This document shows positions 17,932-62,286 of a stretch of DNA of 64,000 nt, piece by piece. A program made the position numbers and the translations under genes. Positions within the stretch are counted from its first letter, which is position 1, and each line of letters begins with the position of its first letter. Below the pieces are notes generated by a model that searched no databases, was not told the DNA's origin, and saw only the letters and a program-made list of their open reading frames with translations. Source of the DNA: Rhizodiscina lignyota (lineage: Eukaryota); assembly GCA_010015805.1 (NCBI GenBank), contig ML978144.1, positions 1 to 64,000 of the forward strand, given 5' to 3'.

Positions 17932-20900
17932 ATGGCCGTACGTCGCGCCCCTTGCACAATTTCTCCGTTGCCTCGAAGCCTTGAGCTCCGACGTCATACT
18001 CGGCGTCCAGGATTTGGCATGTAGCTAATACTACGCAACAGGGACAATTGAGCGAAAAAGCGATTCGATACCTCGCGCAATTGGACGCGGCGCGATGTGA
18101 TGGCCGCTGGAATGAAGTCCCGGAGCTTGCGCGCAAGGTCGAGAAGCATGCGCCGCAGAGAAAATGTGCAGCTGCCCCCGACTCCTTGGAAATATATCGT
18201 TGACAGTGCATAGGCCTCGCTATCACCGCCCGAACAGAGGCACAGATTGCAGTCCAAGGTCCCCAGCGACCCGTCACCGCACTTTCGGATTCCTCGAAAA
18301 CGAAGTCGCTCTTGTCACCGCTCCTTGCCCCACTACAAGCTGCTTTCGAGCAAAGCAACGTCCTGTCCGAAGATGCATTCGAAGCGACAGTATGCCTGGC
18401 TTGGATACAATGGCTGCTAGGGGAGCCGCAACTCGCTGTGGCACAACTACCAGATGACTTTGCAGTCTTGCTGAAGGAGCTGTTAGAGGGCGATCGCACC
18501 ATTGGGCAGTCGGTGCGCGTCTGCGCAATCAAAGGCGCCTACATCAAAGGTATGGAAAGGGCACTATCTCACATATGCTGGAATTGAGCCATCTGCTAGG
18601 CCATTCTCTCGAGAAACTACGGGCTGTCCAGTCGGCCACCTCCACCTACCTTTCCATGCTCCCTTACCTATCCTCCTTCCAGAGCTTTAAGACGACCAAC
18701 TCCCAGTTCTGCCTTTGGACACAATGCCTCCTGACCCGCCTCTGCGTCATATCTGCCTCTCCTACCGTCCCGGTCACCGGCATTGACATCAACACCACAC
18801 TCTGGCTTTTCAGTATTTGGCAGACGTTCTGGACAACCTCCACAGCGCTCAGGAGTATCAGTGGATATGACCCTCGAAAAGATTTGGGATACTTGTGGCG
18901 AGATGTATGGTTCGCATACTACAGGACATTGAGTGACATCTTGCAACGTGGTTGGCTGTATTCTCTAGGGCATTCTGCGGACACCGCTCCTCGGGTTTTA
19001 GAGTCCCCGGAGATTTTGAGCGAAGACGAGTTTCTCGCATCGAGATTGCGTCAAAGAGCAGATTTGAAGAACATCGAAGCGATCAATGAGAGCTTCCTTC
19101 TCAAAGAGACCACATTCCCCAAAGCCACCGAACGGAATGAGGACGTAGAGGCATGGGCTGATGCTGTAATGCGTAATTGGCGTGTAATGTGCGGCCCGAC
19201 ATGGACAGATGAAGAGCTTGGTGCAGGAGGTAAGGGTGCTGTTGGCCGAGGAGTCCTGGACATCCTATATCGTGCCGCTACGAAGACATATCACTCGACG
19301 CAGATTCTGCGACACTTATTTACAGTCCACGCATCGCTGGCGGAATTTGATCTTGCGTTCAAAGCCTTCGACTCATATGTCGAGATTGTGACTAGGGGCA
19401 AAGATGATGCAGAGAAGAGCGGGGAAGCCGATCGGGCCCTCGACGATGACGACACCGTGTTGAAGACATCGGCAGAGGCAATTCGGATATTATGTCGTTT
19501 TGGCGGTCGAAAGGAGGCAGAAAAGGCAATAGAGATTGGCGATAGAATGGAGAAATGGTTGAAGCAACACACGCCGGTTGTACCCACAACAAGGTCGTCC
19601 CGAGAGGACCAGGAAGACCGGACAGAGATGGCGGTCTCTCCGAAGGCCATATCAATTGCGTATAGAGCAATTGCCCTGAGCCAAGCACATTGGGCACGGG
19701 TCACTTACGATGCGAAAGCGAGAGCCGGACTCCAAACGCAAGCCGTTCACTGTTTCACAAAATCGCTGGATCCGAAGTTTGAAGACCCGCGGAATGTGGA
19801 GACGGTGTACTCACTCAGTCTTTTGCTAGCTGAGACCCGAGATATTTCGGGGGCAATCAAGCTGATCAAGCAAGCATTAGGTCCATTATCCAACTCGATC
19901 CCGGCGCTGGCCCCTGACGGTGTAATGTCAGACGGGGAAAGGCTGGCCTCTGACGGCAGCTACATAGCAGAGAGGAGGGCAGTACCTATATGGCACTTGT
20001 TGGCGTTGCTCCTTACTGCGAGATCTGAATACACAACAGCTGGGCGTGCATGCGATGCTGCCTTCGAACAGTTTCGCGATCCCTCAAATCTTTATGGCGC
20101 CGAAGAATCTGAGCGCTACAAGAGCGATCATCTAAACCAACTGTCCGCCACATCAATGAACGAAAAAGCAGGGCATCGGAGAACAACGGGCATAGTTGAT
20201 CGTATGGAGGCATTTGAACGTGAGAGCCTCTTGCAGGTCAAAATAACGCAGCTTTCGCTTATAGAAGCGATCGACGGGAGCACTGCTGCTGTCGACTCCT
20301 CTGATCAACTTCTTGCTTTGTATGCACGGCTTTTTGGAGACCCGTCAAGTGCTCCGTTGAACTTGCAGCCGACAGCTTCGTTCCTATCACCGCCAAAGAC
20401 GGCAAGATCACTCAGGGACAGCATACTCGGGAGATCAAGTAATTCGAAACGGATATCGCTTAGACCGAAGTCTGGCATAGCGGGATCGACTGCGACGGGT
20501 ATCTCTAGGCCATCAACGATGGCAACGCACGCTACAGCACCGGCGCCTACAATTCAAGTCATTGATGAAGAGGGTCAAAACATGCAAGATGAGCAGAAGC
20601 ATTCTCATCATCATGTATTACACCATAAGCCCCATTCTGAGCGACCGGTGAGCAGGCGGAGTGAAAGTGTCAGACTGAGGAGGCGAAGAAGCCAAGACCT
20701 CGAAAAGCAAGAGCCACGACCTGCTACATCCAACGGCGTTAATGAAAAGGCCCCTCTCGTGGAAGACCCGCCACCGGTACCACCGATACAATCTGCTACT
20801 CACAACGCGGAGGATGTTGAGTATCATGCCATATCTAGCGACGAAGAACGACCAGCGACGCGGAATTTCCCGCCTATCGCACATAATTTACCGTTAGAGA

Positions 20901-21899
20901 AAGAACCGCCACCCGCAGGTCAGCATAACCAGCCGCCTCACCAAGATGTTCGTCTTCCAGCACCATTCCCAACCTCTCCAGATACTTCCGATTACGCAGC
21001 CCTCGAACCGAAGCTCCCGGTGCTGCAAGAGCGGCGGCATAAGGTTAGCCTACTGGTGCAGGTCTGGCTCTTTATTGCCGGCCTCTATACCAGGGCGGCG
21101 ATGTATGAGGATGCTAAAGGCGCGATTGATGAAGCTTTTAAACTTGTGCAAGGTTTTGAAGGAGAAGTGAGTAAACAAGATCCGAGCGTGAGGGGCTTCT
21201 CAGACAGAGGCTGGGGAGGAGGCAAGAGTGTGGAGGGATTGTGGGGAGATGTCTGGGCTGAGGTATATCTACCTCATTACTGTCAATGTTGACGGAATGG
21301 GTCTTAGCTAACTATGACTCCAGCAAGGTCACCTCGCACGCGCCCGCGAACTCCCCCACGAAGCTATGGCATACTACGAGAAGGCCCTCTCCCGTTTTCC
21401 AGATCATCCTGCGGCAACGGTGGGTTTGTCAGAGATCCTGCTCGACATTTATTGTCAAAAGATCCCACCGGAGCCTGCAGACCCTGCTTCACTCCTCCCG
21501 TCTACCTTCTCCACTCCGGACAAAGACACTGCGTCTGCTCAGATGCCATCCAACGGGGATCTTGCGGGGAACGCAAACTCGACCCAATACCATTCAACTC
21601 CGAGAGAGCATCACGCAGATGGTGCGACTGGAACTTCACAATCACAAATCAAGCCTATAACGCCAGAAGAGTTGAACAGGCTTGCGGCACGTGATCGTGC
21701 TTACAGTCTACTCTCCAGCCTTACAAAGTTGGGATGCGGATGGGATTATTCAGAAGCATGGTTCGCCTTGGCCAGGGCGTATGAAGAAGGTGGTCAGGTA
21801 GAGAAAGCGAAGGAGGTGTTGTGGTGGTGCGTCGAGCTAGAGGATACGAGACCGATTCGTAGCTGGGGTGCAATTGGCTTGGGAGGCGGTGTGCTTTAA
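17932..21899 (+). CDS. YPP1: TPR scaffold, Ypp1/TTC7-like (filamentation protein Rhf1-like)
   Basis: KAIRYLAQLDAARCDGRWNEVPELARKVEKHAP N-terminus; C-terminal WDYSEAWFALARAYE...WWCVELEDTRPIR; introns 17938-18041, 18166-18213, 18550-18599 and ~21263-21323. Confidence 0.85.
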
Positions 21900-23719: not shown

Positions 23720-25208
23720 TTAATCATCAACCGTCTTTCCGCTCTCTTTACGACCAACCACTACGTTGGTCAAGGGCACAGGCTCGCTTCCGATGCTATC
23801 AGCTGAATGTTGACGGCCAGCAAATATATTGCGGATGCGAGACACCAAGCTTGTCTTTCCGGTCTCCTCTCCATTAACATGCATCGAAAACCGATGTGAT
23901 ACCAAGGTCTTAGCGGAAAGATAGCTCTTTGTTGGTGAGTTGGGCGTGCCGTTGCTGGTGGCTAGAGCGGAGTTGCTAGCACTACTACATAGTCAGCTTC
24001 TATTGCCTCAAGGTATGAACGGAAGAGCTTACAGTGAGTCGGTGCCAACAAAGGTATTGGCGGAGCTTCCTCTGCTGAACAAGCTCTTTGCCTTGCCACC
24101 AAGCAAGCTCCACTTTCCACTGTTGCCGGTCCGGGTCTGATGCCTCGTCTCTTCCAACAAAGATGGCCAAATCTTGCCCAGGCCAAGAGTTGCCAGCCAG
24201 CCTCTGTACATCTTCAGCGCCTCAGTTCCTGTGCCAAAGAAGAAGAAGACAAGCCATCCCGCAATGATGCTACCGAAGGTCTCCGGTCGTACTTTTCCAT
24301 GGCTTGGATAGAGATAGATGATGTCCCACTCAGAGTGTGTATATGACCAGGAGAAGGGTCCTGTAGAGACCGGAAAGGCGAGCGAGAAGGCATAGAGGTT
24401 GGCCGGCAGTTGAGAGCATATGATGAGGAGGCATAAGATGAACGTGCGCCAGAAACGTGAGCGGGTTGAGCTATGGCTCCGGATGAGGGTGGAAAAGTCG
24501 CGAGAGTAGCGGATGAGGCGGTAGATCACAATGCCTACAAATGAGACGTGAGATAGTAACTGAAAGTGAGCAATCTAGGAGTGGACAGTGCTTACATGCA
24601 TAGATGGCAGCAATGAGATCAAAGATTGGGAACCACATCACCGTTAGGACGATGCTGAGCCAGGAGTCGGCGATCACATAGACGCAGCCCGTTATGCCGA
24701 GGATGGCGTAGCGGCCTGCCTGAACGACGTAGAAGACCAAAATGAAGAACAGCGGTGCACCATAGCACAGGAGTAGTTCGAGCACCAATTTACGTCTCTT
24801 CTCGATCTTGCTTGTCGATATGACTGTCGCGTTCGTATCCAGGACTCTGGCCAGCTCACGGAAGATGCAAATGGTCGCCGCGGACCCACCAAGAGCGCCC
24901 ATGAGATACAGACGAACCTCAATGTCGCAGAACACAGCGCCCTGGAACCACTCAGTGACGTTGTCACGCGGCCATATGAGTACATTCGTGAATGTGACGA
25001 GGTTGAGGACTGTGAGGTAGATGATGAGGCTGGCAGCGCCGACGTTGCGATGCCTGAGGTGCCATATCAAGGGAGGCAGGTCGAGAAGGATGGCAATGAT
25101 GGCCAATATAGGAAGAATGACTGCAAGCGGGTAAAGTGGATATGTCTGCGATTCTGCGTCTGTTGCCATGGTTGCAGATGACGGAGCAGTGGCGGAATCT
25201 GGGTTCAT
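23720..25208 (-). CDS. STE3: STE3-type (a-factor-like) pheromone receptor GPCR
   Basis: LDLPPLIWHLRHRNVGA, IWPRDN..WFQGAVFCDIEVRL, YVVQAGRYAILGITGC, SRFWRTF, FFFFGTGTEA; introns 24535-24595 and ~23985-24032. Confidence 0.93.
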
Positions 25209-26074
25209 CAGTCCAGCTGTTGAGTTGCCACAACTCTCTGTACTCTTTCAGAAGCCTGAGGGCAAAATGTATGAGGCCGCAGAAAGTCCACGAGAAGTCT
25301 TGGAACTCGAAGAAGAAGAGAATGATGAAGGAGAAAGAGAGGGTCGAAGTCGAGCTTGGGAAATGATACAACCATTGCTCCAGTTCAAGGATGCTCAATA
25401 AGCTCAATAACTGGAACATCACCATAGAGTTTATTGAGGTTTTAAAACACGAATAAGGAGGCTGGTGGCCCAAAGTCAAGTTGGAGCAGCATTTGGTCAT
25501 GGTGTGAGTGTTTCTGAAACCTCAGTGCCGTATTTGGGCTTCAATAAGAATTTTGCCAGCGACAATAACGAAAGGGGGATTTTCGAACAAAATTAAAGTT
25601 AAGATGCAAAGAAATTCATTTGTTGACACTGAATTTGAATTTGAACGCGGCAAAAGTTTTCTTCGATACTGGATGACCGCTTCTAAGGGGTCGAAAACGA
25701 CTGGAGTTCTTTCTATCGTATCAGTTAACCTCGCCATACTATGAACGAGTATGAAAGGTGATCTACGTTAGTTGAATATGCCGTTGGAGACTTGAATCGG
25801 TCATTCTATTGCTGCTTCAAAGCGCCTACAGGGCGAGTAGATTTGAACCTCGGAAGGTGGAAGAGTTCTGGTGCATCCCTGAATGACCGCCGAGCTTTCA
25901 GGCGCGTCACCACCGCGCTTCCCAGCTCCCCAAACGCCATTTGCCAACCACAACTTCCATTCCCGTACAACCTCGAGCATGCGCGCGACCACTCAGCTTG
26001 GTCGTTGCAGTGGGTCGCACCGCCCTCAATGGGAACGCAAAGCCGCGAAAGCCTTCGAAAGGTGAATTGCCAGC

Positions 26075-45569: not shown

Positions 45570-47269
45570 ATGCCTCTACGCGGTAGTACCGATCTCGACT
45601 ACACCTGGTACGGCGTGCTTGTTACCGACTGTGATGCCCTCCTCGTGCTGGAAAAGTGCTTGAAGGTGAAAACCTTTTTCATCTGTTTGGGGGCACTCTG
45701 TTACTAAATTAGTCCTAGGGTGAACTGGCTCATATTCCTCGACGGCCACACGATTCTGAGAGAACTAGGCTGATTAAGAGCGGATCGATCTTTGTCTACG
45801 AGTCAAATGCATCTGGCATCAAACGATGGACGGACGGCATCAACTGGAGCCCAAGTAGGATCCTAACCAACTTTCTCGTCTATCATGAACTGGAAAAGGC
45901 ACCACCACCTGGAGAGAAGAAGCGTGCAATCAAACGAAAGCGATCTGAGACCGAATTTGACGACCAAGATCCGAAAACGGCGCAGAGGACTTTGATCGAG
46001 GAGGAGTGGACTGACGACGACCGCCGATTGATGGGCTCCCCCCAGGACAACTACGGCTGGAAAGCTGGCGGCCTGGTCAAGAAAACCTACTCATTCGATT
46101 TCCGAGGTGCTTCTCACCACATCATCTCCTACTTCAATCCTGAAGATGTTCGATCTGGAGATCTGAAGCGTCCAATTCATTGCAAGACGTTCCAGGAGAC
46201 CTTCATTCGCCCAGAACTCATCGAACAGGGTGCTCGCTCGAGGAATCCGATCACAGAGGCTCAGATCGAACAGCAACGATGGGAGCGACCGTTGTACCAG
46301 AATGACTCCCCTGTGTCATTGATGCGGCAGTTTCCAGTCTCGCAGGGCATCTCGTACCCTGCCACAGGTCAGATAGTGGACTACACCTCATCTTCACACA
46401 AGCAGACGTTTTCGCAGTCTCACGCTCCTATGCACAGGCCTTCCATCCATTTCCCAGCAGATGAGAGCATGTACCAATCAGCCACGACCGGCTATCAGCA
46501 GCCGATGGGCCAAGGCCCTATGCATGCACGACATGCATCGATTTCAGGCTCTATCAACGAGGGCTTCCAGAGACCGCAGCTTCAAGATGGCCTTGCGCGA
46601 ATAACGATTCCAATCGATGCTGCCTCTGAGAGCTCCTACCAGACGCCAACATCGGCAATTCAACGTGCCCGTGGTCATCCTTCTGTCAACCACAGTCCTA
46701 TTGACTTGAAGTCGGCTTCTGTTTTCGAGGAGGATGAACCAACTGAGCCGTCGTACGCACCGATTACGCATGCGCGCCCCGAATACTCGCTTGTCACTTC
46801 TGCACCGCACGGCATGCCATCCGTAGACGCGTCCTACTCACATGCAATCACTCGACCTCTGTATCATGCTCCGCACACGACTTCGCATATTCACGAGACT
46901 CACGCATATTACGCTCCATCGCACATGCCGGGCCCTCCCCCGGCGAAGAAAGGCCGCATCGAAACTTCGTATCAAAACCCGAACTTTACTACTCCTTCCT
47001 GGGAACGTTCAATATCTGCGCCGGTGGCAGGAGCTGGCATTTCAGTCGCGCAGCATGACCAGGCAGGTCTTGCTGTTCATGTAGCACCATTCGAAGCGAT
47101 GTCCTTCCCTCACGGTACAGCTGGCTTCCCCGCAGGCCATGGCTACGCATACTCCTACGCACCGGACCATGTACCATATGGCGATATGGGCGCGGATTTC
47201 GGCGCAACGCAAGCACCTGGCATGTACAATATCCAGGGTTTCTCGCCGCAACTTGCCGCACCTAGTTGA
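45570..47269 (+). CDS. Gti1/Pac2 family WOPR-box transcription factor (Wor1/Ryp1/Sge1-like)
   Basis: Exon 1 MPLRGSTDLDYTWYGVLVTDCDALLVLEKCLK, intron 45666-45718, then IPRRPHDSER..IKSGSIFVY...GIKRWTDGINWSPSRILTNFLVY (WOPRa) and GLVKKTYS...HHIISYF (WOPRb). Confidence 0.92.
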
Positions 47270-49235
47270 CTGGGAGGTGGCGTCTACGCATTACAACGAG
47301 GCTACAGCAATGTCCAACGTCAACCTTCTCATCCACCAAACGCGCAGCATCCACCTTCTCACCCACCTTCTCACCCCCTGCGTTACTAATCCTAAAAGTT
47401 GTCTAATACTCGCGATTCTGTCTTCGATCTTTCACGAATCTCCTTCTTGGATCGAACCTGATCCATATACCCTTGCTCACACTACTCGGCGGTCCTGATA
47501 CCCCCTTCCTCTTCTTCGAATCGAATCTTCAGCGTGCGTCAAGCTTTGTCTGCTATACTGGGTGGAATGCGTCGGCGGAGTTATCTATGGGGCTCAAGTG
47601 CAGCTTGGGCGGAGGCGTCTGTGTCCGCAATTGCTGCGGTTGTATGTGGGAACGAAGCATCATGGCTCGAATTGGGTGGATCTCTGCTTTACAGCGCTCT
47701 GCTCTCTGGGACGGGTTAGTTGCTTGATTTGCTCTGCGAAAAGTGGGGTTGCGAACATTGGTCTGTCCTTTCCTCGACGCGAATACACGTTCGCTCGCTG
47801 AGCTCGCACCCCAAAAGAAATGTATAATATAAAGATCAATATGAGCGAGATTGAGTGAAAAACTTCAGTCGTCACGGGTGCTACCTGGGTACTTGCGCAA
47901 TATGATCGTCCCTGATCCTGGTAGCGTCTCGGGCAGCAAGCGCAAGGTCACGTCACCCCCTTTTCTCGACGTTCGCTTCACGCGCACACTGTGCAGCGAA
48001 CTGCTCGGCCTCTTCCAGAACGCATGCTTATGGGATAGATGGGAAGGCTTCAAACGCGCCACCAACTTTTGACGTGTTGCGCGGAAAGCTTATTGTATGC
48101 AGGCTGCGGACCCCAATGCCGCTGACTCGACGGGCTCTCCATCCACCGTTTGGAAGGGTGAGGCGTCTACCTTCAGGCGCGGCCCGATGCGTCCCACACT
48201 TTCCCATGATCATCTCACCTTTGCCCCGTTTGCGCCCTCTTCCGCGCCATATACACGTCGCGGCGTGTGCGTGGGGTGCGCGGCGAAGGGGGTTGTGCTG
48301 ACGTTGTGCAGCGCATCGCGCCCAACTCCAAGAGCATCAGAAACAGACGCGGCGGCGCCAGGAATGCGCGAGCGCCCGGCGACAAGGCGAGACGAGGCTG
48401 GAGGATGGGCTGCTGCACGATACTGACGTCGGGTTGAGAGGAGCGACGATGGCGGTGCCTGGCAGATGCGACAGATGCTCCATGGCAGGCGGCGGTCGAG
48501 CACTTAAACTTTTGCGCTGCTGCAGGAGGCGCACATTGCGTCTTTCATGAAACATCTGCCATGGCCGTCGCAGCACGTGCAGCCGGGAAGCTTAGTCTGC
48601 TCGACATGCCTTACTTAGCAGCTGCCGCACGTGGCCGCTCGACGATCGCGCCGCTGGACATGACTCTCGCTGCTCGCTCTTAAGCGTCTCGCGCCCCGCT
48701 GGCGCTAGAAGCGCGACGGAAGGTTGGAAGCGGGCGGCACACCTCTTCGCAACGTCGCGCGCCCGCTACGCGACTCGGCAGCACCACTGGCAATTTCTTT
48801 TCTTTTTCCCACGCCTGCGGATTGCTGGTGGGCGACTTTTGCGGAGGTGGCGCTGGCCGGCTTCGTTAGTGCCAGCCGCGTTGCGCGATTCTGCTCCCGA
48901 GATTCCGGGGGCGAGATTGGGACGGCGCGTTTTGCGATCTCAAGGGCCGCGGCGAATCAGGTGTGCGCGCGAACGAGGGGTGAGCAAGAGGCGTCATTTC
49001 TCGGTCTATGGGCATTGCCATCCATTGCGCCTTCTACCGCCCGCCAGACATATTCCCGCACCAACTCCGCTATCAACTGTTTCCGCCGGAAATGGGCATG
49101 GCGCGGCAGCGCTTCGAATTCTGACTCGCGCCTCCCATCCCACCTGCTAGAGCACCCAATGAGCGAGGAGTGACGAAGCACTCGCATGCGGAGATCAACC
49201 AGGCTCGTATCAATCGGGGCTTCCTCAAGAAGAGC

Positions 49236-50384
49236 ATGGATATCGACGCCGCGCTGGACGAAGATGCCGGCCACGGCGGTGCCGACTTGTCGGCAAGCCG
49301 AGACCCGGCAGCGAAGCTGATGCTCCCGTTGACGTGCGAGCCGCCGAACGAGCAGAACCCGCCGACGCAGAAGGTGTGGATTGTCTTTGGAGCTACTGGG
49401 CACATGGGACGCGCTCTCGTGCGCAGCGCACTCACGCATGGAGACAGGGTGACGGCCGTGGGCTGGACGCAGGAGCACGGCAGGGAAGAGCTGAGCAAGT
49501 GGCAGGGCAAGAACGTGCAGTGGATGCTCTGCGACGTGCGCATCCGCGAGAGCGTCGAGAAAGTGATCAGGGAGAGCGTCGAGCGCTGGGGCCGCGTCGA
49601 CGTGATAGCGAACTGCGTCGGCTTCGGCGTCATCGGCGCGTGCGAGGACCAGGACGAGTGCGAGCTGCGCAACCAGTTCGACGTCAACTTCTTCGGCACC
49701 CTGCACATCATCCAGCTGTCTCTGCCCTACTTCCGCGCGCGGCAAGCCGGCCGCTACCTCATCTTCAGCAGCACGTCTGGCGCGCTCGGCGTGCCCGGCC
49801 TGGGCCCCTACTGCGCGACAAAGTATGCCGTGGAGGGCCTCATCGAGAGCATGCTCTACGAGGTCGACTGCTACAACATCAAAGCCTCGCTCGTCGAGCC
49901 GGGCCACGTACGCCGCGACGAGCCGGAGCCGCCGGCGGGCGAGGTGCGCAGCCCGGGCGACCACGCGATCCAGCTCGCGCCCCTGCCCAAGCGCTTCCAG
50001 CAGTTCAAAGTCAAGGCCGCGAGCCCGCCGTATGCAGGCGCGAACGCGCCGGCCGGGCACGCGAAGCGCATGCTGCAGTGGCTGAACGACCGGCAGCCGA
50101 CGAGCGCGGTGAAGAGCGCGGAGCTGGTGTGGCAGCTGGGCCACTGCAGCTATCCGCCCCTGAGGCTGCTGCTGGGCAGCTTTGCGGTCGAGAGCATCAG
50201 GGATCGCCTGCGGAGCATCACGGAGGAGATCGAGGACTGGAAGCATCTGCACTTTCCCGCGGAGCTTGGAGGCAGGTCGGATGGGCATGAGCTGGAAGAG
50301 TCTGGGGGAGGGATGGATGAGGGCGGGAGGGAAGAGGAAGATGAAGGAGAGCAGGATGAGGAGATGAAAGAGGAAGGGGATTGA
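49236..50384 (+). CDS. Short-chain dehydrogenase/reductase (SDR)
   Basis: VWIVFGATGHMGRAL, GRVDVIAN, FDVNFFG, catalytic S and YCATKYA; very high GC3; start codon uncertain (first in-frame ATG used). Confidence 0.9.
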   Translation: MDIDAALDEDAGHGGADLSASRDPAAKLMLPLTCEPPNEQNPPTQKVWIVFGATGHMGRALVRSALTHGDRVTAVGWTQEHGREELSKWQGKNVQWMLCDVRIRESVEKVIRESVERWGRVDVIANCVGFGVIGACEDQDECELRNQFDVNFFGTLHIIQLSLPYFRARQAGRYLIFSSTSGALGVPGLGPYCATKYAVEGLIESMLYEVDCYNIKASLVEPGHVRRDEPEPPAGEVRSPGDHAIQLAPLPKRFQQFKVKAASPPYAGANAPAGHAKRMLQWLNDRQPTSAVKSAELVWQLGHCSYPPLRLLLGSFAVESIRDRLRSITEEIEDWKHLHFPAELGGRSDGHELEESGGGMDEGGREEEDEGEQDEEMKEEGD

Positions 50385-50911
50385 ATGTCTCTCTGGTCTA
50401 CGCAGGTGCTAGTTCCTCGTGAGTACATAACGCTATGAGGCCCAAAAGAGCGGCTCTTTTCTGCGCCAATCCGAAGCAAATCTTCCGAATCAGGCCTAAC
50501 AAACCACTCCCCAATAACCTTGAATGTAAACTCACCAATAGATGGAAGCTTCTTAGAAGTGCTAAAGGGAACTGATATATATTGACTCTGTAGGTGTTGG
50601 TTCGCGGGAAACCACTTCCTCTTGGCAGACATATTGAACACTCTACAATTTCCATTTCCAAATATCTATGTACCTCCCTAGACATTGAAATTCCTTAATC
50701 TGTCTATATGGTTGGCTGCCTCAGCCTTGGGACAACCCCGGTCACTACTTCCAAATTCGATCTAGCGCGTCCACCGAGAACATCGTGCCACATCGCTCAG
50801 CCTCGTCCAATCCACCTTGAACCTCACTGCCTTGGTCCTGCGTTCAAATATAATCCATCATGCAAACAATCTCTTTCCGTCTGTCATCCGCATTCTCAGC
50901 CATCCTCGACT

Positions 50912-53900
50912 ATGGCTGAACTGCTGGAACTTCCTGACCTGCAGAGTTGGCAGTTGGAGGACTTTCTGAGCGACGCTGCATTTGGCGCGGACAGCCTGAT
51001 TAATCAAGTCGAAACTCTTTCTCCTGAACATGATGTCTTCGAAGGCCTGCCTCAAGACCTGTTGGCCGATTTATGGACAAACAATGATGTCAACGCCGCT
51101 GTCGCCGAATCAACCATGAATCCGGATCACTCGATCGAAGCTCGACAGGAGACGAACCACCCTCACTCCGGTGACCAACTGCTGTCTATCGACCCTCAGA
51201 CTATCGCTACACTTCAGTACGATCCAATGGCAGTGGATGTTGACCGCTCAAGTGTGCGAAAATCAGCGCCGAAAGTCACTAGTGAAGTTCTTCTGTTTTC
51301 CCCGGACGACTATCCCTATTCCGCTCCCAGGAAGCGTACAGCACCTAAGTCCAGGCTTCCGGCTCAGGGAAAGAGCAGGCTTCCGGCTCAGGCAAAGGAT
51401 GTACTTCTCGCTTGGTACAATACTCACGATTATCCTTACCCGTCTAAACAAGATGTCGAGGACCTTGCGCGAGCCACAGACTTGTCTGCTAAACAAGTGC
51501 GGACGTTCTTCACTAATCAGAGAGTACGGAGCGCAAACCCAGGCGGCAAATCCAATCGCCAAGAAGACACAATGAAATTTGTGAGCTCTGTGGCGCCCTG
51601 CACTAAAAATGGACATCCAGATTTCGTGGAATCCTCTGTAGCGACACCAATCGACTCTTTGCAAGCCGCACGGTCGCCGGACCAAGGTCGAGCAACAACG
51701 TCGTCATACTTGGCGGAAAGTCCTCTGTTCTCACATACCGGAGTCGTTTTGAGGAATCCCGTGGGAAGCCTCTCTCCTTTCAGCCTTCAGTTTTCGGACA
51801 AGGCCGTCGCAGGGAGTATGCGGGGGACATCTGCTTCATCTAGTCCTGTGATTCTGTACAGCACTTCGTTTCAACTCGCCCACCAGGGACCGAGCTTGAC
51901 GAGAGAAAATCTCCGCTCCTTAATTGAAGCAGGCGCAAGTGCCAAAACTGGACGACAGCGGCTGAGCATCTCCCTTGAAAGGTTCCTTAACGAGCCGGAA
52001 CTGGCTGCAAACGATTTGGACATTCTGAAGGCGGCTCAGCAAATTGTAGAGGCCCAAAAGGAGACCTCGGACCTTTCGCCGATCGATAGCGCATCAATTA
52101 ATAGCATACCGATTCAAGCAGCTAAGGAAGGAAGACAACGAGAATATGTTTGCAGCAGATATCCGCCCTGCAACCTCAAGTTCATCAAAGCGGCAGATTG
52201 TTCGCGACACATAAGGTTTGGTTTCATCTTCTAGAGAGTTACGACTATCCAGCTTACAATAATATATAGGAAGGAGCATGAAGGAGGATGTTCTTTCCAG
52301 TGCCATTGTTCCAAGATATTTTCAAAGCTCGATGATCTCCGCGAGCATGCCATAACAGTGCATGCGAATGAAAATGTCCCCTGTAATTTCATTAGCGCAT
52401 ACGGCACTGCGGCTCTGCGTCAAGGAGAGACAGTTGGAATACATTCACAACTCGTGGGTCCTGATCAGACTCCGCGCCAAATCCTGACTCTCTCTCAATT
52501 CGAACGGCCGAGCTCAGTGGCATCCTTTTCTTCGAATCGCAGTTCAAGATTAAGGTATGTAGAGAAATTTCTTCTTTGGCGAGTATATCCCTGAAAGCTT
52601 GATTTTATGCCCTTCAGAGTATATGATAGTAGTATCTCCTGAAGACCATACACACTTTCATTAGTTGTAGATTCTTTACCTCACAGCCGTTTGGTGTTGC
52701 CATGGTGGGCTCCTTTGTCACCCTGGGCATTCCCTCAGTTGGCCTCAGCCAGTTCACACAAAGGGACATCCGCGATTCCGACAGTCCGGTCACGCCACGT
52801 GCGTACCTGACTGCCGGAAACGGAGGCAGCTCTAGAATTCGCTAAATTGCGCCAACATCAAACTGGTTGTATTTAGCGAAGAGGGGACTTTTCTGTTGAC
52901 GCGGTGGCGTATGTGCCATGGCACACCTCTATAGACGTTATGGACGCTCTTCGCCAATTTCCAACATTGCTTTTCTCAATTTCCTTCCTTCACTTGCTGA
53001 ATCTCCAACAGCGCTGCATCTGGATCGAGTATCAGTTCATCCCTGGCCTCTTCGTCGAGCGTGGTCTCGAGCACCAAATCTGGTAGCCGAAAGGGCAAAC
53101 GACGCTGGACGCGGATGCATAGCCTACGAGAAATACGAAGCGAATCATTATCGTCTGAGAAACGGAGGAAGGGGATATATCATTGCACATTCTGTCAGAA
53201 ACCATGCAGAGACCGCTATGACTGGACCCGCCATGAAATTACCCATGCCGAGCCTCAGGGCTGGGTATGCATGCTTGAAGATCAACCGACTCATGGTGGC
53301 AAATGTGCATTCTGCCCACTGCGTGCAGAGGACTTATCGGATTTGTTTATAGGAGCGGCAGCTCTTCCACGCGACATCTGTTCGGAGGCGCACCACAATA
53401 TCACTGCTTGTTTAGCAAAAACCCTCGTCCAGAGAACCTTTGGAAGGAAAGATCTACTGAAAGAACACATCAAACGGAGTCACTTACATGAGGATGCCCG
53501 AGACGACCCCAGGGTACAGGATCGATTGGATCAGGTTTTGCCTCATTGGGTTCGAGACAAGAAGAAAGAAGAGCTAGATCCCAATGCCCTCTGGTGCGGA
53601 TTCTGCGGCGTGTTATTCAACAATTGGATGGAAAGACAGGGTCATGTAGCCACTCATTTTTTGAATGGTTGCCGAATACATGAATGGAATCTACGGAACC
53701 CCCTCTCTCCAAGTTTACGGCAACAACACCGAAATAGCTCTACGCCAACCACTCCACTTGTATTGAGGCGACAGAGCGATAGTAGGGACCAATATGTCGA
53801 CTGCCTCATCCGTAAGTTTAACTCCCTGTTGAGCCGTCTGTTTCGTTCAGCTAAATCACTCCATTATCGAAGATTTTGCAACCCAAATGGTTTTGGCCAT

Positions 53901-54510
53901 CTGGCCTGACTCAAATACCATCACTGTTGAATACGCAAATGAAAGTGGAGACGTACGCACAGGTCTTCTGCGCACATTTATTCGAGTAACCCTCGAACTG
54001 TCGAAACCTACCTTTTCGACCTTTCTCACAGCGCTGTACTACCTCATCTTGGTAAATGTGCATGTCATACGAAGTGACAATCCCGCCATGGAGGAGCCGA
54101 AAGACAACGAACCAGACGACGACGAGGTTGGCTCTTTGCAAGCTGGGCCTGGAATGTTCATTACCGCGCTCATCTTGGCTTTCAAATATAACTGGGATAG
54201 CGACCCCGATCTGCACGGTCTCCAAGCGTGGAGTCGTAGTACTGGCCTCTCGATTCACGAAATCAAACTCAGGGAGAGAGCGTTTCTCCGCGCTATATCT
54301 TGGAAGCTTTTTATCCCAGAAGCCACCTTCCGGAAATGGCAAAACATCGTCCTGGGATGCACTTTGCCAATTCCGATACCGATACCGTCTTACGACTCGA
54401 AATTGAGAGTATTCATTGCGTCTCTTAACCCGAACCTCGAAGGCTACCAAGGTCCCTTGCTGAAGGATACCGCGGTCGAAGACGCTGTTAGTTTGCTTCG
54501 ACTCACGTAG
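50912..54510 (+). CDS. TALE-type homeodomain + C2H2 zinc-finger protein fused to a C-terminal Pcl/Clg1-like cyclin domain
   Basis: Homeodomain with PYP at ~51371-51530; C2H2-type motifs (CSRYPPC...H, CHCSK...H, CTFC...RHEITH, FGRKDLLKEHIKRSH, WCGFC...HVATHF); cyclin box LRTFIRVTL...ALYYL...MFITALILAFKY..D...AWSRSTGLSIHEIKLRERAFLRAISWKL; introns 52216-52269, 52555-53011 (possibly with internal exons) and 53812-53872 keep one frame (3027 nt). Confidence 0.72.
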
Positions 54511-54830
54511 CGGTACGGAGCATTCGGCGATCGATCTACCAGGCTGTGAATTTGATTCACTGTCTCTCTTTCGCTGCGAGTGCCTTTTATGCAAGGGAGA
54601 TTGAATATCGATTCTGTATATGCGAAGAATGTGAATACATCCTCAAGAATTTACGGATTCTCCGACAAGATATGGGCAAAACCAAATTCAGATGATATCG
54701 CAACTGCGATTCAATCCCATCCCAACAAGTTGGGACCCGAAGAACGGCGTCAAGGGCATTCAATGTCTGTGGAAGCGATGGAAAATCTGGATCTATGGAG
54801 TATCTTCTATGTTGACACATCTAAAGACTC

Positions 54831-56358
54831 TTAGCTTCTTACCAGATTCCTGTGCCTCTCCAAGAACGATTCCACAGCCGCAACAAACCTGTCCAACTCC
54901 TCTTGCGGCGTCCCCAGAATCATCGCTATCGTCCCCCTCCGAGAAATCCAATACCCCTCCTCCATCATCTCAAGCCAGAACAAATCCTTCAACTCCCAGT
55001 CTTCTTTGATGACTTCAACGCACGTGACATCGCTCTCCTTCATCTCTCCATCGGCGGAAAAATGCACCGCCATAATCGTCCCCTTACCGCTGAAGCAGCA
55101 GTTCGTCCCCTCGCATGCCTTGTTCAGCTTCTCCCGGAACGCATCGCCGTTTTTGCTGAACTCTTCGCATACTTCGGGCTTGTATACATCGTGCAGTCCT
55201 GCGTATCCGGCGTGCATCGCCAGGGTATTGTTGTTGAATGTGCCTGAATGCGCCAAGGACCCCGGCTGGCGCGGGTCGTATACGGACATGACCTCTGTGC
55301 TGCCACCGAACGCGCCAAACGCCAGTCCGCCGCCGAGATATTTGCCAAAAGTTGTGAGGTCGGGAGTGAGAGAGAGGAGAGATTGGAGGCCGCCGGGAGC
55401 GAGACGGGAGGTCATGACTTCATCAAGCATGAAAAGCGCACCGATCTGGTTGGAACACGTCAGTATGTAACAGCATAAATGGGCCTCAGAAGGAACAGCG
55501 GTGCGGACCATACCTTATGCGCACTCTCCTGGCACTGAGCCAAAAACTCTTTCGTCCCAATGATACACCCACCGGCTCCCTGCATCCCCTCCACCAACAC
55601 AGCTGCCAGTTGTCCCTCCAAACCCTCAATCAACTCTTTCGCTCCCGCGACGTCATTGTATCGTCCCAAGACCCAGTCGTCTAGATCAACGTTGTTCTCC
55701 GCCGGCTGCCCGGATCCAAAACTCAGCACTGCGCCGTGATAGCCCCCGGAAAATACCACCACCTTCCTCTTGCCTGTGTATTTGCGTGCGCCTGCCAGCG
55801 CATGGAGATTCGCTTCTGTGCCCGAGTTGCAAAAGCGCACGCGGCCGAGGTTGAAGCGGCTGCGCATAAGCGATGCAAAGCGAGACTCGGCAGCGGTGGT
55901 GGCTCCGAGGTTGAGCCCGATAGTGGAGATTGTGTTGGTGAGGGACGAGAGGATGTTTGGGTTCGAATGGCCGTAGAGGCCGGCGGTTAATTCACCTACG
56001 AAGTCGGTGTAGCTGTGGATTGCAAATAGTGATCAGCATTAGGTATGCAAGAGTAGAACATTTTTGGTTTGACGTACGTATGGTCGTCTTCATCGGTAAC
56101 TTGATGGCCTTTCCCACTCTTCATGCTCAGTGGAAATGGCGTGGTGTAGAGCAGCGTTCGAGTATTGCCGCCAGGAAGGTTGTTGACTGCTTCTTCGTGC
56201 AATCGCAGAGAGTTTGGGTTGCGCTTTGTAAATTGAGCTTTAGCATCATCTAAAGCAGCCTGTAAATCGGCTGGGTAGCTCTTTAAGTTGAGTTTGTCTT
56301 TGATTGTATCGGTGACAGGAGCTATGGTGGGGTTCTGGACGAGTACTGCGGGCGCCAT
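54831..56358 (-). CDS. Class-III PLP aminotransferase (glutamate-1-semialdehyde aminomutase-like)
   Basis: LPGGNTRT, RFCNSGTEAN, GGYHG, LDEVMTSR, PDLTTFGKYLGGG, HSGTFNNN; introns 56013-56077 and 55446-55513. Confidence 0.92.
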
Positions 56359-56811
56359 TGTCAGTGCTGCGCGGTGATGAATCTAAAAATGATGAGTTCA
56401 AGTAGTCGTCCTCAGGTGGAAGTTTATTGGAATAGCAATTTATTTGTCAAAGGGCGTGCTCTTAAGTATTGTGTTGTCATGTTATCTCGGCATGCCGAAG
56501 ACGGAGTTGCATAGTTGCGGGACGTATCAACTCCCATTGGCTCGTGGATCGATTCACCAAATGTAGCGGTTCGAGCTCCGAAGATTGTTGGTCTCGGTGT
56601 CTCGGTAGCACGAAATCTGCAAATGGTTCCTATTCTGGTTAATGCTCAATCCTTTATATATGAAGACTGCAATGACTGGTTAAAAGATGTTTAACACAAT
56701 ATGACGGATCGATTTTTGAATGTTTAATGTTCTTCCATTCGCAATACTGGGTCGAGTATCTATGCATCTGATGCTGTTATGTACAATGGCGAGTGCTCGC
56801 TGTGCTGTCGA

Positions 56812-57623
56812 TCATGCTTGTGCTCGAGATTTCGCAACTGGTGTCCAGGGGAAATACTTGTTCTTCGTTCTAAGAGGCGGTCAGCGCTAATGGACGAATA
56901 GTGTTGAAAAGAATATCATGACGAAATCCAACGTACGTGCTGTATGTCTTGAACGCTGACCGGCCCAATGTCAATGTTGGTCTATGTTCCACCGGCTCCC
57001 ACTCTCGTTGTCTTCGTTGCAAGACTGGGTCTTCGGTCGGAGGCTTGTCGACGGCGTAGGACATCCACAGATGCCTAATGAGAGGTTAGGGATACATCAA
57101 GAGCATGACAGAGAAGTGCATATACCAGCCGGGCTCGATTTGCGACCTTACAGGCGCCTGTCAGTCTTATGTCTTCTCAAGAGCGTCCAACTGGGACTCA
57201 CGGATCATATTCTTTTTGCTTGTAATCGACCCATCTTGTCCTCACTATTGGTGCTCAGCATTTACTCGTCAGGAAGTATATTTGAAGCGTACATGGAAGC
57301 TCTTCTTGCAAGTTCTCGTAGTATTTGTTGCCGTAGCGGTCGATGCCAATCAGTGTGCCGGCCTTCGTGTCGCCTGCGCGAAAGTCAGCGCCAGTAGGGA
57401 GGAAGCTAGTGACGTGTTCATACCGATATACTATTCCACGATTAGCAATTCAGCTCTTCAGCGACTCTCAAGTCTTCTGCCTTCGCAAGACGTACCTGCA
57501 TTTGATGTGCCGCATCCTAGAAACGCTCTCGGTCAGCCATTGCCACGCGACCGTCTCGTCAAAGACACTCACCCTTATGCCAACCCGCCAAAGATTCCGG
57601 AATGTTCGCGTGATGGTCGACAT
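56812..57623 (-). CDS. NDUFA12: Mitochondrial complex I subunit NDUFA12 (B17.2/N7BM), 8 exons, 139 aa
   Basis: Spliced sequence MSTITRTFRNLWRVGIR-DAAHQMQ-YIG-DTKAGTLIGIDRYGNKYYEN...RTRWVDY...QIEPGWHLWMSY.VDKPPT...YFPWTP; exons total 420 nt. Confidence 0.92.
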
Positions 57624-57835
57624 GGCGCCGATTCGAGTTGCTGCACCGTGAATTGCGTCGGAGAAGCTGTCGATGATGGCCTTGTTAGACACCGGACATG
57701 CCAAGCGTCTTGCCCGTTACGGACTAGCGCTATATCAGAAATAACCCCTGCGAACGAACCATCTCATCTCTGGCAATCCGCAGTATTCGACGACGAGATG
57801 AGTATATCCGTCGCTAGATAGCATCGGCGCATGCA
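57624..57835. promoter_or_regulatory. Short bidirectional promoter between NDUFA12 and PGS1
   Basis: Divergent start codons about 210 bp apart. Confidence 0.6.
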
Positions 57836-59646
57836 ATGTTTTCAAGACTCGCTGTTCGATGTGCGAGGCCTCGAAAGATCCCAAGATGTGCTCAATGCAG
57901 ACAAATGCCGCTGAGACGCTTTTCAGCGTCAAGCGTGCCATCCGTTCCTCCACCGTCATCACTTTCTATATTCGGTGGTCTCATGACCGAACTTGACAAA
58001 ATATCCCCAAGGTTTAATATACCTGCATCTCAAATAGAGATACTACGTGGTCCAGTCGAATTCTATGATACTTTGAAGGCATGTATAAGACCCACCAGCC
58101 ACCCAGCCACAGCGAAGTATACGGGCCGTTTCATGAGTTATTCTGATTGTGAAGAAGTAGAGCAAGATTTCAAATGCCAAGCGGAGAATCTATCTCTCCA
58201 CCCTTTATATTGGGAAGGCCGAACACGAATTGGTAAGTGCTCCTCTCCTCGCATGCACTTGTTCTGACGGATGGATAGATTGATACCATCAAAGAAGCTC
58301 TCCGCAAGAATCCAGAACTGCAGGTGTCCATTCTTACTGACGCTCTTCGTGGGACTCGCGAGACGCCGAAGCCATCATGCGCGTCTTTGTTGGCATCTCT
58401 GGTCGAAGAATTCGGTGAAAACAGGGTCGAGATCCGGATGTTCCACACGCCAAATCTAACTGGTCTCCGTAAGCGGATTGTTCCACGTCGGATCAATGAG
58501 GGCTGGGGCTTGCAACATATGAAGCTCTATGGAATTGACGACGAACTTATCCTGTCCGGCGCCAATTTGTCAAACGATTACTTCACCAATCGGCAGGATA
58601 GATATCACGTTTTTTCATCGAAAGACATTACGGAGTACTTCCATCGTATTTACACTGGAGTGACGAGCATCAGCTATTCAGTATTGCCCGATAAAGATTC
58701 AGAAGCTGGGTATACGATGACCTGGCCAGAGACGAATGGCTGCCCTTCGCCGTTGGACGATCCCAAGAGTTACAGAGTTCAGGCTTCCAGAGTTCTTAAG
58801 CCACTCATAGAGCCGCCATCTTCTGCGCCAGGACAAATTGTCGGAGACACAGTTGTGTACCCACTTCTTCAGTTCACTCCACTACTCAAACCTGAGGACA
58901 CAAGCACTGAACTACCAGCCATTCTCACAATCTTGCGCGCCCTCAACCCTAGCAGCAACGAGTTGAAAAGTGCAAGCGACTCGTCGCACACCTCACTCGC
59001 GACAACACCACCATTACAAAATGCATCATGGACGTTCACAGCGGGATATTTCAACACACCCCCATTTCTTCGCGACCTGCTCCTCTCCACCAATCCATCT
59101 CACGGAACCGTAATAGCAGCATCTCCATGGGCGAACGGCTTTTACGGCAGCAAAGGTGTCAGTGGGATGTTGCCAGCGGCGTATACATTGCTTGGCAAGC
59201 ACTTTCTTAACGCCATTCAGAAACAAGGTCTGGATGACCGAGTCAAGCTGATGGAATGGCGGCGAGGGACCGTTGGTGAACCACAGGGCTGGACGTATCA
59301 TGCAAAGGGCTTCTGGGTGACATTAGCCGGAGAAGATTCGTCCGAGCTGGCCACCTCCTTCCAGCCAGAGAAAGACGTATCTGCTGAGGAGCGCAAGGGC
59401 CCCAGTCTTACAATCGTCGGCTCTTCAAATTACACGAAACGCAGCTATGAGCTGGACCTGGAGGCAAATGCGTGCATTCTGACACGTAATCCGGATTTGA
59501 TGAGGAGGCTTTCCGAGGAAGAGAAATGGTTACAAGAGTATGCGAAGGTCGTGGATAAGAAGGAGTTTGAGATGATTGAGAGAAGAGTTGGATTGCATGT
59601 TCGGATCGCCATGGGTATTGTAACTCTACTTGGAGGCGCATTGTAA
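57836..59646 (+). CDS. PGS1: CDP-diacylglycerol--glycerol-3-phosphate 3-phosphatidyltransferase (PLD superfamily)
   Basis: Mitochondrial-type presequence, RRIYLSTLYIG, GLQHMKLYGIDD...SGANLSNDYFTNRQDRY, GWTYHAKG, GSSNYTKRS; introns 58079-58160 (GC-AG) and 58233-58278. Confidence 0.95.
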
Positions 59647-59802
59647 GATTGTGTTGCCGCTGCGGAGTGAGTGCATGTTTCTTCTATGTACAAAAGAAAA
59701 ACCTCCTGCGATGGCCTTTGTACAGTTGTACTGGCGTAGACTACTCCGTATATTCTGCTTTTAGTCTACCTATCTGATCTGATAGGTCAATTGCTCTATC
59801 AT

Positions 59803-61236
59803 TTAGAATCTCTTTGGACTTCTTTGTCTCTTCCGGACTTTGTGGGCATCCTCTGGTGTCACATCATTCTTCCTATAGTCTTTCCCTTCGCAGAGGCAGT
59901 CTCGGTACTGCTTGTATTCTGACAATTCTCCCTTCTTGGGCTGCTGGACAGCGTGAAAGACAATCAATCCCTCGTCAGCGCAATCTGGTCCGAGAAATGA
60001 CGCCTTTCTCTCTAACAAGGCCGCGATTGTGTCTCTGGTTTTGATCGTTGTGCCGCAGAAAGTCATCCAACTCCAGCGATATCGGTGTAGATAGGCGTTC
60101 AGGACAGCCTTGAACGTCTGCCTCTGTGCCATTCTCCGTCAGTTCTGAAGTAGAAAGTACTGTTTGGCACGGATCATCTCTCACCTTGTGTATGGTGACC
60201 AGCATCTCAGCACAACGCATTGGTTGCGTATAGAGTGTTGGGGAATTCCGATCGTCGAGATACACCGCTACGAGAATCCAGTTATGTCGCCGATGCCACT
60301 CAAGCTGTGTGCTGAACCGATGAGCGACTTCGGCATGGATTCGCCTGGGAGTGAAGTCAGTCGTCCATTCCCATCATTAGATATGCTGCTAATGTCTCTT
60401 TACCTGAAGGTCTTGATATAATCTGGTCGGAGTTGAATCGATGTATCGTTTGATCGATTAGATATGACCTCACAGAAGAAGTTGCAGTCCTCGCTCTTAG
60501 AGCGGCAATACTCAACAGCCGTGTCGACCAAAAGATAGGTGTCGCCGAATACTCGCGACTCAGCAGCTTCTCTGAATACTCTCGTCAACGCTTTGGTGAA
60601 TGTGAATTCGCCGTCGGCTGGTGTCGTGCCATTCGTAGCTGCACCCAGCAAATATATTGCACGGCCGGCAAACTCCTTAGGGTTGTTTCGTTTAAGTTCG
60701 CGTAAGTCTCTTCGTGCTTCACCTACGCAGCAAGTATCAAGCACGAGAAGGAGATCCCCAGTTGAATCGAACAGCAGCGGATGAATGAGTTCTTGGATGC
60801 TAAGCCATAACCACTCGCCGTTTGCCAGTGGACTAAAGTATATTAGTGCCCCGTTGTGCCTCGGAAATACTGCGATTATAACGAACCTAGAGATAATGAA
60901 GTCGTCGTCGCCTTCACTATCTCCGTGACCGCTAAAATGTAAGATGATCAACTTATGTGGATCACCGTGTTCTCGCGCCAGGAGGCCGACTCGACCAGCC
61001 AATCCCGCTTTGCACTCCACGAGCGTTGTCAACGGGATCCGATACTTGGAGAATCCGTATATGTATCGGTTTGACAGTATATCTTTCATCCTGTCAATCT
61101 CATTTTCCCACTCCTCTTTGAACTCCTCGTCGGTCAGAGTCAGCGCCAGGCAGTGTACTCCAGTATAAATGTGCGCGGGTACATTCGTGAAGGCGTGCTG
61201 TGGTAAGCGCAGCGCGAAGGATCGCGGACGTGACAT
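59803..61236 (-). CDS. Caspase-like (CD clan) His/Cys domain protein with C-terminal SUMO/ubiquitin-like domain, ~419 aa
   Basis: LIILHFSGHG and LLLVLDTCC motifs, LLGAA...FTKAL; introns 60833-60886, 60345-60403 and 60124-60184 join three ORFs into 1260 nt. Confidence 0.7.
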
Positions 61237-62286
61237 CGCCAGTATTTGTAGGAGAGATCAAAGAAAAGAAGGTTGAAGGACGCGTGTTAGGATGTTGTCT
61301 CTGAAAGAAACGACTTGTTAGTGCGAAGATTTAAGAGCGCGGCGAGAAGTAGACGGCGTTTGCCGAGCAAGTGAAGTGGTTGGAGTTGAAACTGTAGGCA
61401 CTTACGAGATTATCTGGCAAGGAAGTTAAGGAAATCAGTCGAGTAAAGCCAGACAATTGAAGTATTCAGTACGAATGTGAGGGTCGCAAGATCTCTCATC
61501 TGCATTCCAATCTGACCCGGAGGCTCGTTTGCTTTGCATTCATTTTCCGCAGCTTGAATCATTTTCGGCGCGGCATCGCAGCACTTACGACCTTTGCCTC
61601 TATGATGCCTAGCCATTCCGTGATCAACAGATCTACTGATCGAGTATAACAAATGCAATGCGAAGCCCTTGTTAGAATCTGTCTATGGAACACCTTCGCA
61701 CTGAAGCAACGCTAGGCATACATCGTGAGTTAGATCTCTGCCGCAAAGAGTTAAGAGACTAACATTTTGTTTGCTTGCATCCTCGACAAGCCATAACGGC
61801 AGCATTTATAGCCCTCGTGAGTGGTAGAGGCCACCCATACCTTGGGATTTTCTCCTTCTTTAGCACAGTATCTGCATTTCAAGACTAAGTCTGGCCATAC
61901 TGAGCAATTTGCAAAATAATGTGACCTGACGACTTATCGACGTGCCATTCTGAGTCGCTGCAGAAGGATGACATATCAGCATACATGTTAGTATTGAAAA
62001 TACAAGTATTCTATCAAATTGCTCTATTAGCGGAGAGCTGAAATGCGAATCTAGATATTCCCAATTTGGAAGGAGATTGTCTCTCGAATGAGGTCATCGG
62101 AGACGAGAGAACCTATCAACTGCGAGCTCCTCCAACGCCGATAGTAGCGCTTACGCTGGGAGTACCTTGTAAGATACCGACACTGCTAACGAGAAAGTTT
62201 GTCCGAGTTATTGTCATTTAAATAAGAGTTGAACTTGTCGACAATGGCAACTTCCAAGAAACAAATATTTGCAAGTCCCTTTCAAA

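Follow-up and report, generated by a model that had tools for sequence, protein, structure and literature searches.

A probable divergent caspase-like protease of a filamentous ascomycete, encoded by an intron-containing gene and ending in a lineage-specific C-terminal extension

Analyzing a 64-kb stretch of DNA from a filamentous ascomycete (the window), we find a gene that probably encodes a divergent fungal caspase-like protease, is interrupted by introns, and ends in a lineage-specific tail with a regulatory or localizing role. We give this explanation, taken as a whole, a probability of roughly 60%. The product would be an intracellular clan CD cysteine endopeptidase of 419 residues, C14-like in kind, whose nearest structural kin would be the metacaspases, caspases, paracaspase, and bacterial caspase-like proteins. 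Its C-terminal part (residues 261-419, the C-part), which carries a basic, NLS-like tail, would most likely regulate or localize the protease, as the variable C-terminal regions of other family members do.

The initial annotation had joined the open frames of this gene through three short introns into a protein of 419 residues. The coordinates, the splice signals, and the coding sequence of 1260 nt are all present, and the four exons together read through to a single terminal stop (Table 1). Donor, branch, and acceptor are canonical in all three introns. When read unspliced from 61236, the ATG frame has 278 codons and ends at the TAA of 60402-60400, downstream of which follow two more open frames in different phases. 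The four-exon gene model is, on the sequence, very likely, and shuffled sequences, codon usage, and the breaks in the ORFs of relatives agree with it.

Table 1. Positions of the caspase-like gene, its exons and introns, and other genes of the window
Feature	Position	Strand	Description
Caspase-like gene	61236..59803	minus	ATG at 61236, TAA stop 59805-59803
Exon 1	60887..61236	minus	residues 1-116 + 2 bases; N-terminus, first strands/helices of the caspase-like domain, His104
Intron 1	60833..60886	minus	54 nt, GTTCGT...CTAAT...TAG; in frame, stop-free
Exon 2	60404..60832	minus	residues 117-260; second half of the caspase-like domain, Cys151
Intron 2	60345..60403	minus	59 nt, GTAAAG...CTGAC...CAG; unspliced, gives TAA at 60402-60400
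Exon 3	60185..60344	minus	residues 261-313; start of the orphan C-terminal extension; open frame
Intron 3	60124..60184	minus	61 nt, GTGAGA...CTGAC...CAG; frame-shifting
Exon 4	59803..60123	minus	residues 314-419 + TAA stop; remainder of the C-terminal extension
Basic tail KVRKRQRSPKRF	59841-59806	minus	last 12 residues of the 419-aa protein
PLD-type ORF	58279-59646	plus	two PLDc motifs; convergent with the caspase-like gene, stops 156 nt apart
P450 gene	62413-63885		flanks the caspase-like gene on the other side
STE3-type pheromone receptor	24032-25247	minus	two ORFs split by an intron
Gti1/Pac2 (Wor1-like) regulator	45719-47266	plus	
Homeobox KN gene	50699-52231	plus	

With the first ORF (the N-part) as the query, HMMER was run against all 1.84 billion representative proteins and recovered nine relatives at E ≤ 0.001 (P0001-P0009), five of them short ORF fragments. 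All nine match the spliced protein within residues 4-260 only, and the N-terminus of exon 1 aligns with P0003 and P0004. A word-index search for near homologues of the N-part gave 1556 candidates, none at E ≤ 0.001, and the protein collection contains no exact copy of the window's own ORFs. A paralogue of the gene was looked for elsewhere in the window, and none was found. A metagenome scan with alignment A2 yielded one distant locus, L001, which shares the caspase-like part only. We take the gene to belong to a small family of ascomycete caspase-like proteases, of which it is a strongly diverged representative.

The fragmentary relatives bear on the splice sites. The ends of the exon-1-like ORFs (P0001, P0003, and P0004) lie no more than a few codons from the intron 1 site, and the exon-2-like ORFs (P0002 and P0005) end at ...FR or ...YR, where the window reads ...FR-stop. 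The latter ends can be explained because a phase-2 AG/GTRA donor, if left unspliced, reads 'R, stop'; a true conserved stop at 60400 would fit them equally well. P0003 and P0005 were both found on contigs of 1713 nt, and P0004 and P0002 on contigs of 3616 nt; equal lengths of this kind would be expected of exon-1/exon-2 pairs of one gene. P0001 comes from a contig of 1080 nt. Retention of intron 1 was considered and rejected on three grounds: the spacing of His and Cys (47 residues with the intron spliced and 65 with it retained, against 44-58 in P0006-P0009), the ORF ends of the relatives, and the low pLDDT (<50) of the AlphaFold segment 105-127, in which the read-through residues sit.

We then consider the possibility that the gene stops at the TAA of 60402-60400. 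It would then encode nothing but a caspase-like protein some 260 residues long, and the frames downstream would be chance-open, noncoding 3′ sequence. Every detectable relative matches residues 4-260 only, the exon-2-like ORFs of P0002 and P0005 stop at the corresponding residue, exon-wise searches found neither a homologue nor a family match for the C-part, and the GTAAAG donor fits the fungal consensus weakly; each of these points speaks for the shorter protein. Against them stands, in the first place, a shuffle test in which we fixed the GTAAAG donor, shuffled the 748 bases 3′ of it, and asked whether splicing could yield an open frame 159 codons long or longer. The real sequence itself gives 161 and 165. 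When donor, branch, and YAG rules were applied, only 2 of 3000 shuffles reached at least 159 codons, although 12 of 1000 did so when GT-AG alone was required, a count that favors the shorter protein. The spliced open structure of the gene exceeds chance expectation. Introns 2 and 3, 59 and 61 nt long, also share a CTGAC branch placed 13-16 nt from a CAG acceptor, and the unspliced phase-2 donor explains the ends of the relatives' ORFs just as well as a stop would.

Codon usage argues in the same direction. Training log-odds on 19 long ORFs of the window, we obtained scores of 0.142, 0.166, 0.129, and 0.113 for exons 1 to 4 in the proposed frame, and the window's long ORFs have an in-frame mean of 0.153 (s.d. 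0.07-0.09) and an off-frame mean of -0.25. Stop-free shuffles matched the score of exon 3 in 0 of 200 cases and that of exon 4 in 4 of 200; among natural off-frame ORFs, 11 and 16 of 160, respectively, did so. Of the six frames of exons 3 and 4, the proposed one alone has coding-like usage, bar one antisense frame over exon 3 (0.126, as compared with 0.129 for the sense frame). A 90-aa frame on the plus strand (60149-60421) also overlaps intron 2 and exon 3; both are most likely shadows cast by the sense frame. Weighing both sides, we regard a protein that ends at residue 260 as rather improbable and retain the four-exon model.

For the N-part, the initial annotation had claimed a caspase/metacaspase-fold protease with a His-Cys dyad. 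The Pfam profile PF00656 (Peptidase_C14) matches the window ORF at E 0.003 with 17.7 bits, scored on a query that still holds the in-frame intron. This score does not reach the gathering cut-off (21.4 bits), and we therefore file the protein as caspase-fold and C14-like, not as a curated member of PF00656. Three of the nine relatives pass the cut-off (P0006 with 22.5, P0008 with 22.9, and P0009 with 28.3 bits). In the ESM Atlas, 26 of the 30 clusters nearest to the N-part belong to one family set (best score 0.95), and the three clusters listed from that set are ascomycete, with PF00656 on 20-33% of their members. A profile of ten sequences compared with the PDB matched Arabidopsis metacaspase-4 at E 0.049, with the alignment on YSGHG.

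The predicted structure leads to the same family. The AlphaFold model of the N-part is of moderate quality (pTM 0.69, core pLDDT 70-92, mean pLDDT 64.7). Performing Foldseek with this model, we find 59 PDB chains at E ≤ 0.001, the match spanning model residues 17-261, and the matches listed are all caspase-fold proteins or complexes containing one (GSU0716, MALT1, SAVED-CHAT, Raptor, metacaspases, and caspases). This is the caspase-hemoglobinase fold that had been expected of the N-terminal half, and the model has the corresponding alpha/beta architecture with a central sheet. In the model, residues 1-243 form a complete caspase-like domain. The SAVED-CHAT chain 8tl0 is among the matches (E 1.9e-05), a likeness at the fold level only; Pfam gave no CHAT match (PF12770) at E ≤ 1 on the window ORF.

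Both motifs described earlier, a strand followed by SGHG and a strand followed by DTCC, are present in the translation. The catalytic His104 (codon 60927-60925) lies in LIILHFSGHG directly after the model strand E95-102 and aligns with YSGHG of metacaspase-4 in the profile alignment, while Cys151 (spliced numbering; codon 60732-60730) lies in LLLVLDTCC after the strand E161-167 (ORF numbering). In the model, each of the two residues closes one of two neighboring strands at its C-terminal end, the location of the dyad in caspases. His is kept in all 8 sequences that cover its site and Cys in all 7, at 22-53% identity. Since no relative found departs from this dyad, we infer that the protease is catalytically competent and probably active.

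A non-catalytic scaffold that acts by binding, a pseudoprotease like that of Raptor, would have to be reconciled with this invariance across 22-53% identity and with the flanking G-H-G and D-x-C, which are kept as well; this context is typical of active clan CD enzymes. Such a scaffold could account for the Raptor chains among the Foldseek matches, for the weak Raptor_N Pfam matches on the relatives, all of them under the cut-off, and for the subthreshold C14 score of the window protein. We find it very improbable, and an active protease remains the preferred reading. In the S1 pockets of metacaspases and MALT1, an Asp two residues before the Cys points to Arg or Lys at P1. The conserved Asp at the same position before Cys151 suggests, by analogy, cleavage after Arg or Lys and not after Asp.

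Comparison with known systems shows how far the protein has diverged. Metacaspases (C14B; metacaspase-4 6w8r, yeast Yca1 4f6p, and Candida glabrata 7qp0) have an identity of only 11-14% to the window protein. Their Cys motif is D-x-C-H-S-G, whereas the window protein has D-T-C-C-V-G; it also lacks a Pro/Gln-rich or zinc-finger prodomain and instead carries an unrelated C-terminal extension of 159 residues. MALT1 and the bacterial caspase-like proteins (GSU0716, 3bij; SAVED-CHAT, 8tl0) gave the lowest E-values in Foldseek (5e-07 to 3e-05). MALT1 and CHAT proteins resemble the window protein in joining a caspase-like domain to other, variable domains. The window protein differs from this group in giving no CHAT Pfam match (E ≤ 1) and in lacking Ig, death, SAVED, and TPR domains.

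The C-part raised a different question. By eye, the initial annotation had aligned it with the SUMO/Rad60 pattern, and we tested this alignment through Pfam profiles. The absence of a terminal di-Gly and the basic tail ...KVRKRQRSPKRF were seen as described. There is no GG anywhere in residues 261-419, and the protein ends ...PKRF. A C-terminal di-Gly is the conjugation feature of SUMO proper and is absent from SLDs; in this respect, SLDs and the C-part are alike. On such a reading, residues ~282-374 would be a nonconjugatable SUMO/Rad60-SLD-like beta-grasp fused to the protease and serving as a nuclear sensor, decoy, or SUMO-interaction module. The translation offers some ground for it. The stretches WILVAVYL, MLVTIHK, FKAVLNAYLHRY, WMTF, TTI, and LIVFHAV follow each other in an order that fits beta-beta-alpha-beta-beta...beta, and the model of exon 4 opens, at low confidence, with a helix (4-15) and a hairpin (20-22/25-27), in the order alpha1-beta3-beta4.

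No sequence-based search supported the alignment. The C-part (159 residues) was scanned as two separate pieces, exon 3 (53 aa) and exon 4 (106 aa), which lowers the sensitivity; scanned in this way, neither piece matched any Pfam family up to E 10, including ubiquitin (PF00240) and Rad60-SLD (PF11976). Searching the PDB by sequence up to E 10, we obtained no match for exon 3 and, for exon 4, only ribosomal uL14 chains (E 0.75-1.5) and no SUMO or ubiquitin chain. The best Atlas score for the C-part was 0.78, to unnamed clusters, with no ubiquitin-like cluster among those listed. As the exhaustive HMMER scan had the N-part as its query, homologues of the C-part were sought by a word-index search on exon 4, which gave no candidate of near length and 184 longer candidates, none at E ≤ 0.01. 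Comparing the C-part with the post-caspase regions of P0006, P0007, and P0009 by hhalign, we obtained a probability of 0.05%, and no paralogue of the C-part was found in the 64-kb window or in L001.

Structure prediction gave no reliable fold for the C-part. The AlphaFold model of exon 4 alone has a pLDDT of 49.0 and a pTM of 0.35, and its elements (H4-15, E20-22, E25-27, H30-44, and H46-59) are of low confidence. The stretch proposed as beta5 is helical in it, at a pLDDT <50 and with the partner strands absent from the model. When exons 3 and 4 were predicted together as two chains with ESMFold2, both runs scored 0.00, with the partner fold uncertain, which counts neither for nor against the domain. 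Against a SUMO-like domain, the loop between beta1 and beta2 would have ~17 residues and that between alpha1 and beta3 ~3, unlike the loops of ubiquitin and SUMO. What the C-part shares with the SUMO/Rad60 SLD is, then, a hydrophobic/polar pattern recognized by eye and a plausible element order; loop lengths differ, and profiles, PDB sequences, and the language model, consulted exon by exon, gave no support.

We therefore consider a beta-grasp fold of any kind in the C-part unlikely, and a true SUMO/Rad60-like domain improbable. It is just as improbable, in our judgment, that residues ~282-374 are a nonconjugatable module of the kind described above or a highly diverged, profile-invisible ubiquitin-like beta-grasp fused to an active caspase-fold protease and a nuclear-targeting tail. 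If the latter were true, the protein would be a lineage-specific fungal protease reading or mimicking SUMO/ubiquitin signals. In titles and abstract openings retrieved with the two terms, no fusion of a metacaspase with a beta-grasp is evident. As far as its sequence can tell, the C-part is a lineage-specific, fast-evolving extension and not demonstrably SUMO-like.

It had also been suggested that the C-termini of homologues be surveyed for domain shuffling, and they turn out to be variable. P0007 (783 aa) has, by eye, a kinase-like C-terminal region. At L001 (3496-5954), the caspase-like ORFs 3496-3918 and 3845-4267 have the motifs AGHC and LDCC. Downstream of them, an ORF of 455 aa matches protein kinases weakly (E 0.22-0.26; Pkinase E 0.26), and a further ORF weakly matches DUF7580 (E 0.042). 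P0007 resembles this caspase-plus-kinase-like architecture. With kinase-like C-termini in both P0007 and L001, variable C-termini therefore look like a trait of the family. On its upstream side, L001 has an ankyrin-repeat ORF (2-1291) and DUF6594 ORFs.

The initial annotation had further proposed a sensor or decoy coupled to a protease in an immune module, and for this the gene context gave no support. Fungal caspase-like CHAT or S8 proteases adjoin gasdermin genes and bear variable repeat or kinase-like domains, according to two reports (PMC8851545; PMC12881547). These HET-Q2-like proteases resemble the window protein in combining a fungal caspase-clan domain with variable extra domains, and their kinase-like fusions, as described in the same reports (PMC12881547; PMC8851545), resemble P0007 and L001. 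They differ in being CHAT or S8 proteases that usually lie beside a gasdermin gene, whereas the neighbors of the window gene are a PLD-type enzyme and a P450. Scanning with Pfam, we found no gasdermin, NLR, or repeat-sensor match in 10 further ORFs scanned within 52235-61682 (E ≤ 0.01) and no gasdermin or NLR match in 38 long ORFs across the window (E ≤ 1e-5). A gasdermin-linked, HET-Q2-like module was therefore rejected, as no gasdermin or NLR match occurs among the neighboring ORFs scanned.

The PLD-type ORF probably encodes a phosphatidyl-transferase/PLD-family enzyme. Its stop codon and that of the caspase-like gene are just 156 nt apart, so the 3′ UTRs of the two genes probably overlap. 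The rest of the window holds ordinary ascomycete genes (RIX1, STE3, Gti1/Pac2, homeobox, WD40, and SDR). The STE3-type receptor, Gti1/Pac2, and homeobox KN genes place mating or development regulators together in one window. A stop-free frame of 483 codons (48960-50408, minus strand), with no Pfam match, runs antisense to a short-chain dehydrogenase ORF (49125-50381, plus strand; adh_short, E 2.5e-32), and a third long frame (49163-50290, plus strand) overlaps both; the frames overlapping the dehydrogenase are probably shadow frames, though unusually long. At 18458-21896 (plus strand), a 944-aa ORF without a Pfam match (E ≤ 1e-5) leads directly to a TPR-repeat ORF (21318-21896), and the two may be one large, intron-split gene.

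Fungi have many divergent caspase-clan proteases, the substrates of which are mostly unknown, and a few of these proteases are known to activate gasdermin-type cell death. What is new here is a very divergent caspase-like member with an intact dyad and an apparently unique C-terminal region, for which 1.84 billion representative proteins include only nine relatives at E ≤ 0.001. If the C-part were ubiquitin-like after all, the protein would link caspase-type proteolysis to SUMO/ubiquitin signaling in fungi.
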